From: Ostrea edulis
Lineage: Eukaryota
Assembly (NCBI RefSeq): GCF_947568905.1
Contig: NC_079167.1
Span: 92,318,001 to 92,382,000, forward strand
Length of the DNA stretch: 64,000 bases
Direction of reading: 5' to 3'
Part shown: positions 3,001-6,000 of the stretch, piece by piece
How positions within the stretch are numbered: the first letter of the stretch is position 1
Layout of the letters: every line of letters starts with the position of its first letter
Notes under the pieces: model-generated
The model's database searches: none
The model's input: the letters and a program-made list of their open reading frames with translations, nothing else
Told to the model about the DNA's origin: nothing
Program-made: the position numbers and the translations under genes

Positions 3001-6000
3001 TATTTTTGTTATTTTCCTCTTTTAAAGGAATATATATCATTTCACAATAAGAGTGAATTCATTATAAGCGTATTTGTTATAAGCGTGTTTTACTGTACAC
3101 AGTAGTGTTTCTAGAAATGTTAAAAAATATTATATTCTGCAGACAAGAGATTTCTCGTAATATGATAACATCAAGATAAGAGAAAGTATTGGCTGTTTTT
3201 TCTTGTTTTCGTTTCGATGTCAAGGTTTGGTACGTTGAAAGTATTGGGTCTTTTTTCTTGTTTTAGTTTCGATGTCAAGGTTTGGTACGAGGAAAGTATT
3301 GGGTATTTTTTCTTGTTTTAGTTTCGATGTCAAGGTTTGGTACGAGGAAAGTATTGGATATTTTTTCTTGTTTTCATTTCGTTGACAATGCTGGGTAAGA
3401 TGAAAGTATTGGGTATTTTTTCTTGTTTTCGTTTCGATGACAGTGTTTGGTACGATGAAAGTATTGTGTCTCTTTTTTTTCGTTTCGTTGACAATGTTTG
3501 GTACAATGAAAGTAATGGGCTTTTTTTCTTGTTTTCGTTTCGTTGACAATGTTTGGTACAATGAAAGTAATGGGCTTTTTTTCTTGTTTTCGTTTCGATG
3601 CCAAGGTTTGGTACGATGAAAGTAATGGGCTTTTTTTCTTGTTTTCGTTTCGATGCCAAGGTTTGGTACGATGAAAGTAATGGGCTTTTTTTCTTGTTTT
3701 CGTTTCGATGCCAAGGTTTGGTACGATGAAAGTAATGGGCTTTTTTTTCTTGTTTTCGTTTCGATGCCAAGGTTTGGTACGATGAAAGTAATGGGCTTTT
3801 TTTCTTGTTTTCGTTTCGATGTCAAGGTTTGGTACGATGAAAGTAATGGGCTTTTTTTTCTTCTTTTCGTTTCGACGTCAAGGTTTGGTACGATGAAAGT
3901 AATGGGCTTTTTTTCTTGTTTTCGTTTCGATGTCAAGGTTTGGTACGATGAAAGTAATGGGCTTTTTTTTCTTCTTTTCGTTTCGACGTCAAGGTTTGGT
4001 ACGATGAAAGTAATGGGCTTTTTTTCTTGTTTTCGTTTCGATGTCAAGGTTTGGTACGATGAAAAGTACAAACTGGTGAGGACTGACTATCGACCTCTGA
4101 GTCCGGGTCCGCCTACGTACAACATCAATCCACTGACGGAAGTACAAGACTTCAATGCAGGTCCCAAGATAAGATTTTACTTATTTAAAGGGTGAAATAT
4201 ATCAATGAATCTTCAAAGCAATGTGTATAAGAGTTGCTCATGGATTTTTTTCTTTATCCTTTGGTACTTACTAGTAACTTCTTTTTCAAAAACGAATTTC
4301 AAAAATATGATATTTATTTAATTTGAAACTAATAAATCTATAATTAAATTGAAGAAAATCAAAAAGATTAATTATTGAAATAATGCTGATATGAGGAATA
4401 GAGAGACTTGGTGTCTTCATTAAAACGTACTTATGATAATTATATAATTTAGAAAAAGTAGAATAATAATTTGTTATAATCAAGTATTCATGGGCAAATA
4501 ATATTTTTATATCTCTGAAGTGCAAAAAGGTAGATTAAAAAGAAGAAACCTGTCTGCATGCAATACGCGGCAACTTCTTAAGACCCTGTGTTATACAGTT
4601 GTATTTGTTTACAGATATCAGAATCATTTAGCAAACCTTATGATCAAAGTTTGACGCAATTGAAACCTTCATTATCTATCTAGGTGTACGATACATCAAG
4701 GATAATGTATATGGGAACTGCTCTGTTTTGAGTTTGCCAAAGACAGCTTTCGGGGCCTCAGAAAACATGTCTGCCTTCAAAACCAACGGCTCATATGTAC
4801 TACATATGAAAAATCCCCTGCAGTTGTTTTCTATCGACTCCAATTTTACTTTTGTGGGACAGGTAAGACAATATATTAAATTATCAATCAAAGTAAATTG
4901 CTGTATATTATGAAACTGTGCACTGATTATCTTTCGTGGTCATCAAATTTTGTAGTTCTGTGGAAACATACTAAAATTTCGTTGGTACGTAAATTCATGG
5001 ACTTTTGAGTTAAAACTATACTTCCTTGATTACTTCCTGCTCTGTTGATCAAGAGTCTTTACATATATTTACCAATATAGAAATAAAAGTGAGTAATTTT
5101 ATTTCAAGAGTGATGCTTCTCGCGAAATTACACGATAATAGATTCCTCGCGTATATTTAGGAATTGACAGCATATTGTAGATATGCAATCATTCACAAAG
5201 TTTGTGTTACTGATTCTGACAATGATAATGTCTTTGTACTTTCAGCGTCCGTGTCGACAACTGACCTGTGACGTGTTCTCAGCTAAGAGACCGTACTACG
5301 TGGAGGAAATGGGGACGGCGAACGCCACAATTGAATTCTATTTTCTTTCTGTAAAATTCTATTTTCTTTCTGAAAAATTCTATATTTTCTTTCTGTATAA
5401 ATTCTATTTTCTTTCTGTAAAATTCTATTTTCTTTCTGTATAATGTTTTTACACTTTCACCTTTTCCGATTTTAAACAGTTATAAAAGTAACTAACTGTT
5501 TGAGGTAATCTTAGAAGATAAAGCATTGTTTGTACATTGGTCATGAGTTTTGTCTAGCATGTGTTTTATTTGAATTATGATATGAATGAGAACGTGATAT
5601 TTCATTTTATAGAATAATGATCATAATTATCCGAATGATGGCAACGCAGCTACTCGTGATGTTCCCATCCAAATTACCATCGACATGGACAAGGTACGTG
5701 TATGGAAATTGAATACGTACAAATACTAGTAATTAATTGTTAAAAGTAAACATTACTATATGTGATCAGTTAAACCACAGTTTGTCTATCTTTTAGGTGG
5801 GCTTCCGCCAAGTTATGAACATCATGGACTTTGACGGCAATCACCCAGATCTTTCAAACTTCGACGTATCCTCTTGTTATTCCCAAACTGCCAAAGTTCA
5901 TTTCAAAATCAGATTTCCTGGTACGTGATGTTCAACGATATGACAGCAAATGTTTCATGAGATATTCCATATGTTACTTCAATACTTAAGATGTATTGTG

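Follow-up and report, generated by a model that had tools for sequence, protein, structure and literature searches.

The 3′ end of one intron of the Ostrea edulis gene LOC125668617 is a minisatellite that carries the splice acceptor and the start of the following exon in every unit, and it belongs to a known class, the exon-intron junction minisatellites or mirages described from amphioxus and human genes. It is probably a tolerated mirage of slippage origin, in which the spare acceptors are ignored and the last copy is spliced. The array's unit spans the exon-intron boundary in 16 copies, 12 of which keep the signal; the copies are homogenized within the cluster; and splicing to 4049 is seen in all four RefSeq isoform models and in one spliced contig of a relative, whose genome may lack the array. 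Positions given here are those of the window, the whole stretch of 64,000 nucleotides that was analyzed (NC_079167.1, 92,318,001 to 92,382,000, forward strand).

Host gene and structure of the array

LOC125668617, identified through one exon of the window that matches it at 100%, occupies 83 to 16549 on the plus strand. Its 1,396-aa protein was mapped to 30 coding exons across this interval, the first codons lying upstream of the window. The protein combines ependymin/LolA-like domains with PAN domains and, judged by eye from its sequence, has a putative C-terminal membrane anchor. Pfam searches with single exons and with the repeat open reading frame returned nothing at cut-off; the predicted fold of the domain that holds the junction 2871/4049 (mean pLDDT 66.5) resembles ependymin-related proteins and LolA (Foldseek, best E 7.6e-08).

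The array sits at the 3′ end of a phase-0 intron of 1,177 nt (2872 to 4048, plus strand). Upstream lies a coding exon at 2749 to 2871 on the plus strand (TPVGVIC...LVTTVD; P0001 residues 230-270; present in spliced contig X1) with the phase-0 donor GAT^GTAAGC, the caret marking the splice boundary. Downstream lies the authentic exon of 112 nt at 4049 to 4160, also on the plus strand (VWYDEKY...QDFNAG; P0001 residues 271-308), which ends in the weak donor CAG^GTCCCA and is bounded in contig X1 by the joints 2871 to 4049 and 4160 to 4684. A phase-0 intron ending AG^GT before VWY, VWF, or VYY is common to the six paralogous exons that the genome was seen to contain, and only the 4049-4160 exon bears an array at this acceptor, the other five being without one. 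Both internal modules of LOC125668617 (4049-4160 and 9480-9591) have a weak AAG^GT acceptor before VWY, and AAG acceptors make up 5 of the 29 in the gene.

TRF calls the array at 3182 to 4064, with a period of 55, 16.1 copies, and 91% matches. Cut at GAAAGTA, the array resolves into 16 units (3182 to 4060): u11, u13, and u15 measure 56 bp, u6 measures 51 bp, and the other twelve measure 55 bp. Each unit joins 39 nt of intron end to the first 16 nt of exon 4049-4160, and in the array units this exon piece is directly followed by GT; the letters after GTTTGGTACGATGAAA are AGTAC at the authentic 4049 versus GTAAT at the decoys. CAAG^GTTTGG is retained in u1 to u3 and u8 to u16 and gone from u4 to u7. 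An earlier note on this DNA had described an acceptor minisatellite with 12 intact AG sites in 16 units, the loss of CAAG^GTTTGG from four adjacent middle units, and a GT after each unit's exon piece, and unit cutting bears out all of this; the alternation of 55 and 56 bp that it saw near the exon holds for u11 to u16 and fails beyond them.

The units fall into four stretches on the plus strand. Units 1 to 3 (3182 to 3346), the most distal, differ from the authentic unit at 5 positions each and keep CAAG^GTTTGG without TAAT, with extra TTTTAG acceptors in u2 and u3 (3267 and 3322). Units 4 to 7 (3347 to 3562), which have lost the acceptor AAG, are the most diverged (4 to 13 differences), and u5 carries GACAG. 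Units 8 to 15 (3563 to 4005) hold eight complete decoy acceptors, with exon starts at 3606, 3661, 3716, 3772, 3827, 3883, 3938, and 3994; these are the decoys that combine the branch-like TAAT motif, found in u7 to u16 only, with a pyrimidine tract and AG. Unit 16 (4006 to 4060) is the authentic acceptor, with TAAT ~36 nt upstream, a pyrimidine tract, AAG at 4046-4048, and the first exon bases. Several units are identical (u8, u9, and u10; u12, u14, and u16; u13 and u15), while u1 to u7 differ from u16 at 4 to 13 columns, such that the proximal units are homogenized and the distal ones decayed. In a DNA search the unit came up at no other locus, a result that is a lower bound. The first copy was probably made by replication slippage at the GAAAGTA/GAAAAGTA microhomology common to both array ends, with the array then growing by unequal exchange.

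Comparison with known junction minisatellites

In the available text of PMC3087553 and PMC3902484, amphioxus mirages are described from the globin genes BflGb6 (the 3′ end of an intron plus the 5′ part of exon 2) and BflGb9, Adh3, troponin C, and PGBD5. As excerpted, these resemble the oyster array in their tandem boundary copies, in AG/GT being kept by many but not all units, in their homogenized inner units, and in the normal splicing recorded for them, and both acceptor and donor types occur there as they do in LOC125668617. The oyster array differs from what those excerpts give in belonging to a mollusc and in its dimensions, 16 copies of 55 bp against 3 to 6 copies of 150 to 160 bp in BflGb6. 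It further differs in that three of its decoys happen to be in frame. Length instability between haplotypes is a further trait of mirages, and the oyster contigs compared are collapsed over the array.

Human junction minisatellites are listed in the portion of PMC1557585 at hand for F7 intron 7 (37 bp), IFI6 (6-16), CBS intron 13, LMNB2, and PDGF. There, as in the oyster, identical splice sites are repeated into the intron and the exon-proximal site wins, although the human arrays described are donor-sided and the oyster array is acceptor-sided. Their direct counterpart is the second junction array of LOC125668617, 1.3 kb downstream of the acceptor array at 5334 to 5444 on the plus strand, in which a 21-bp unit is repeated in ~5 copies over the donor TCT^GTAAAA (5350/5351); here the first, exon-proximal copy is the one used in X1 and in the RefSeq models. 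A duplication under the Rogers model of intron formation from tandemly duplicated AG^GT, as given in parts of PMC3265369 and PMC2812944, likewise equips each unit with a possible donor and a possible acceptor. Unlike an intron gained in that way, the oyster intron is old, being present in all six paralogous exons. Our coverage of the literature was incomplete; within it we found no report of the LOC125668617 array or of any oyster mirage.

Choice of the last acceptor

All four RefSeq isoforms read LVTTVD^VWYDEKY without the repeat peptide, although these are gene models, which would omit minor or NMD-degraded products, as contigs drop rare variants. The same junction is seen in the X1 contig (2,076 nt, with GT..AG joints), whose bases 468-594 correspond to 2747-2873 and bases 593-702 to 4049-4158, its loose end before 4049 being the end of the upstream exon, i.e., 2871 joined to 4049. 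X1 carries the label of another organism, with 33 differences in 913 aligned exon bases (a ~96% identical relative), and its being RNA is a guess, although the contig is spliced. Because the genome of X1 may lack the array, this contig is weak evidence for skipping; it shows the junction and not the skipping of decoys. Among 13 homologues from bivalves and gastropods, none has an insertion of the repeat type at the junction (in P0020 the site holds a long unrelated insertion, probably a merged gene model, and in P0016 a short deletion), and the 74-aa repeat peptide had no protein match among 7 candidates of 40 to 130 aa. The comparison with run contigs covered the two flanks with one array unit each, and junctions to inner decoys lay outside it.

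Splice sites were scored with matrices built from the 29 introns of LOC125668617, which makes the scores rough. On this local scale, the authentic AAG acceptor at 4049 is weak (score 1.3, rank 5 of 29), as is the donor at 4161 (2.3, rank 2 of 29), whereas the decoys at 3883 and 3994 score 2.5 and several other AGs also exceed the authentic site. Acceptor strength cannot decide for 4049, since u12 and u14 are letter-identical to u16 and other AGs score higher. What sets 4049 apart is that it alone is backed by a true exon body and followed by a donor 112 nt further on; the next 40 nt are 52% purines after 4049 versus 33 to 38% after the decoys. The array offers a natural experiment on acceptor choice: three acceptors that agree letter for letter follow each other at 111-nt intervals and the last one is used, so site strength is no explanation and the outcome points toward a selection made on the exon side. 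The earlier note had argued that at minimum the spliceosome must skip 11 decoys; identical decoys do exist in u12 and u14, and as far as the recorded products go (the four isoforms and X1) they are skipped.

We suggest that 4049 is chosen by exon definition, through the true exon body and the donor 112 nt downstream, which would make the choice a mirror image of that at the 5350 donor array, whose exon-proximal site is likewise the one used. Occasional splicing to a decoy would mostly give a premature stop and lead to NMD, which would clear out-of-frame leakage. Use of the 16-nt exon pieces as microexons was considered and is unsupported: the donor of such a microexon scores 2.9 (rank 4 of 29), and the authentic exon holds stronger GT sites (7.1 and 4.6) that go unused.

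Tolerance of this kind sits uneasily with the weakness of the real acceptor and of the downstream donor, both of which should favor leakage. It is conceivable, but in our judgment unlikely, that the nearest decoys (3994 and 3938) attract a measurable fraction of the splicing and that the greater part of their products is sent to NMD, such that unit number and phase set the amount of productive mRNA. Decoys that equal or outscore the real site would fit such leakage, and there is precedent in human genes: in the excerpted text of PMC1557585, the exon-proximal site alone is used in F7, but the two nearest pseudo-sites are also used in IFI6 and CBS, which also counts against the tolerated mirage. 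A link between repeat length and splicing at thousands of human loci, reported in the part of PMC10078293 available, points the same way. Against it, a decoy junction is absent from the four isoforms and the X1 contig, and amphioxus mirages, as far as the excerpts of PMC3087553 and PMC3902484 go, leave splicing undisturbed and produce no aberrant mRNA.

Possible re-splicing from a rebuilt donor

Decoys might also be used and their use then corrected. Splicing to an AAG^GT decoy would rebuild a donor, GAT^GTTTGG, which could be spliced again to a later AAG to give the normal mRNA. In an extended form of this idea, the decoys are often used, 111-nt re-splicing restores the mRNA, failures end in NMD or in a 37-aa loop, and unit number tunes output; we hold this form to be distinctly improbable, although, if true, it would account for the tolerance of acceptor mirages and provide a case of recursive splicing within an intron of 1.2 kb. 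The correction taken by itself we consider very unlikely. It draws on the fact that all 12 intact units have AG directly followed by GT, as recursive sites do, and on a rebuilt donor whose score of 2.3 equals that of the gene's real donor at 4161, yet at rank 2 of 29 this donor is among the weakest of the gene and not the strong donor of a recursive site. Steps of 111 nt, 166 nt, and upward would match the usual intron size of the gene, 12 of whose 29 introns measure 77 to 125 nt, but the 55-nt span falls below the minimum of ~60 nt quoted in the excerpt of PMC3265369; in that same excerpt, duplicated AGGT is spliced at 6 to 16% in human cells. The final mRNA would equal the observed one. However, recursive splicing has been described for very long introns (PMC13196383), against the 1,177 nt of the array intron, and AG^GT is the ancestral sequence of the junction in all six paralogous exons.

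Reading frame and the 111-bp dimer

Translation of all 34 AGs in 3182 to 4048 shows that the frame is open through the next exon only from exon starts 3716, 3827, 3938, and 4049, with 30 of the 34 leading to a stop. The first three are in frame with 4049 and stop-free, as the earlier note had claimed. It had also held that the intervening acceptors frameshift, and translation from the other five complete decoys of u8 to u15 ends at a stop once 22 codons have been read; decoy 3335 keeps the frame, yet runs into a stop. The frame is free of stops from 3653 to 4165 and meets a TGA at 4193-4195. The insert from acceptor 3938 is the 37-aa repeat already given in that note, VWYDESNGLFFLLFVSTSRFGTMKVMGFFSCFRFDVK. 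With a GRAVY of 0.49 and a best 19-residue window of 1.19, it is no membrane helix; it is Phe-rich and has a free Cys in an extracellular domain.

Since u11 is u10 plus one T, a single slip in the T run, spread by a two-unit duplication, would explain the 111-bp dimer from its sequence, and the dimer may well be a by-product of array growth. In a simulation of T-run changes, an open in-frame decoy arose in 12 of 27 three-unit combinations, and with plus or minus one T in the two units before the last, the last being fixed at 55 bp, it arose in 3 of 9. The keeping of frame is therefore no sign of selection, because one T slip and a duplication suffice for the dimer and the chance is about one in three.

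That the in-frame acceptors 3938, 3827, and 3716 serve to extend the second ependymin-like domain by one, two, or three 37-aa repeats, with the 111-bp phase selected for this purpose, is in our view highly improbable. Three consecutive decoys that are in frame and stop-free would serve such isoforms, and the +T unit on which the phase depends is real in the short-read X3 contigs. In the predicted fold, the junction falls inside the strand at residues 30-39 and the insert also starts VWYDE, so that its effect would be to extend the four-residue turn that comes next in a short beta-hairpin; on this model the isoform would not be structurally barred, a point that also speaks against simple tolerance. 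Against the isoforms, no protein with the repeat is on record among the RefSeq isoforms or in the peptide search, the homologues lack the insertion, one slip explains the phase, and the insert would bring Phe-rich sequence and a free Cys into an extracellular domain. With the repeat peptide in no isoform, homologue, or database protein and the dimer needing just one T slip, the proposal in the earlier note that the array tunes splicing or generates length isoforms stands unsupported, though unrefuted.

Presence of the array in other sequencing data

Three runs, each from a different study (X3, X5, and X7), have contigs with array units. An X3 contig contains a joint that steps back 55 bases and carries the +T form of the unit at depth 30 of 174; contigs of X3 and X5 continue from 4064 into the next unit; one X5 contig spans 2966 to 3234 without a difference; and contigs of X7 hold letters specific to units 2 to 4. 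X3 matches exactly over 1,069 flanking bases and may come from the very sample that was assembled. Summed contig depth for the last unit versus the flank is 204 versus 10 in X3 and 44 versus 3 to 4 in X5, which indicates many copies, depth being no copy number. The +T unit has 0 of depth 38.7 in X5 and 0 of 6.8 in X7, where contigs show presence and not absence, and the contigs of X6 and X7 are without splice joints and continue through the intron. Because contigs of three other runs hold the units, the array's existence is not an assembly artefact: unit lengths that differ by one homopolymer T are a typical long-read error, but X3, X5, and X7 have head-to-tail joints or loose ends that run from unit to unit, and these, with the unit 2 to 4 letters and the +T in X3, make such an origin barely thinkable and rule out the artefact absent from reads that the earlier note had envisaged.

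Junction arrays in paralogous genes

Junction arrays are common among these genes. Four paralogous genes (the one in the window, one at C4:13.89 Mb, and two at C4:74.7 Mb), with ~79 introns, carry six junction arrays, one at an acceptor and five at donors, a count in which one of the five donor arrays fails a strict test and the paralogue introns are estimated from tblastn. The same homologous donor, after YFLS, bears arrays in three of the four paralogues: at 5334 to 5444 of the window, at G000:C4:13891313-13891707 (L016), and at G000:C4:74709655-74710104 on the minus strand (L022). Their units measure 21, 29, and 41 bp, respectively, and each copies its own gene's exon end, which makes separate origins likely. 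The fourth paralogue has YFLA^GTAAGT, the strongest donor of the four, and is without an array at that donor. Three arrays at one homologous donor would arise by random placement with P of 0.003 to 0.008 (a post hoc test), and they are a more unusual observation than the acceptor array itself. The YFLS exon end has 12 to 14 pyrimidines in 15 positions across the paralogues and, at 14 of 15 in the window gene, is the most pyrimidine-rich of its 29; such an exon end may favor slippage. The repeated appearance of arrays at one pyrimidine-rich donor suggests that junction arrays arise at predictable places.

Two donor arrays remain. An older donor array with units of ~40 bp (TACTCAC^GTAAGT; L017, G000:C4:13901232-13901620) has been split by an inserted dispersed repeat, and an array of ~23 copies of 23 bp after a donor (L024, G000:C4:74725460-74726036) repeats CACAG^GTAAA with a short exon overlap only. 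Two further window arrays, at 1171-1246 and 12448-12504, were rejected as junction arrays: each has a donor nearby, but its units are not copies of that donor.

Genomic setting

On the minus strand at 18800 to 41000, the window contains a tandem cluster of at least 6 genes that we take, by eye, to encode ARF/ARL-like small GTPases. Within an intron at 7640 to 8870 lies a decayed reverse-transcriptase-like fragment, presumably of Penelope type, which is itself split by a dispersed repeat at ~8030 to 8290. A short run of telomere-like GGGTTA units occurs at 14355 to 14380, within an intronic dispersed repeat.
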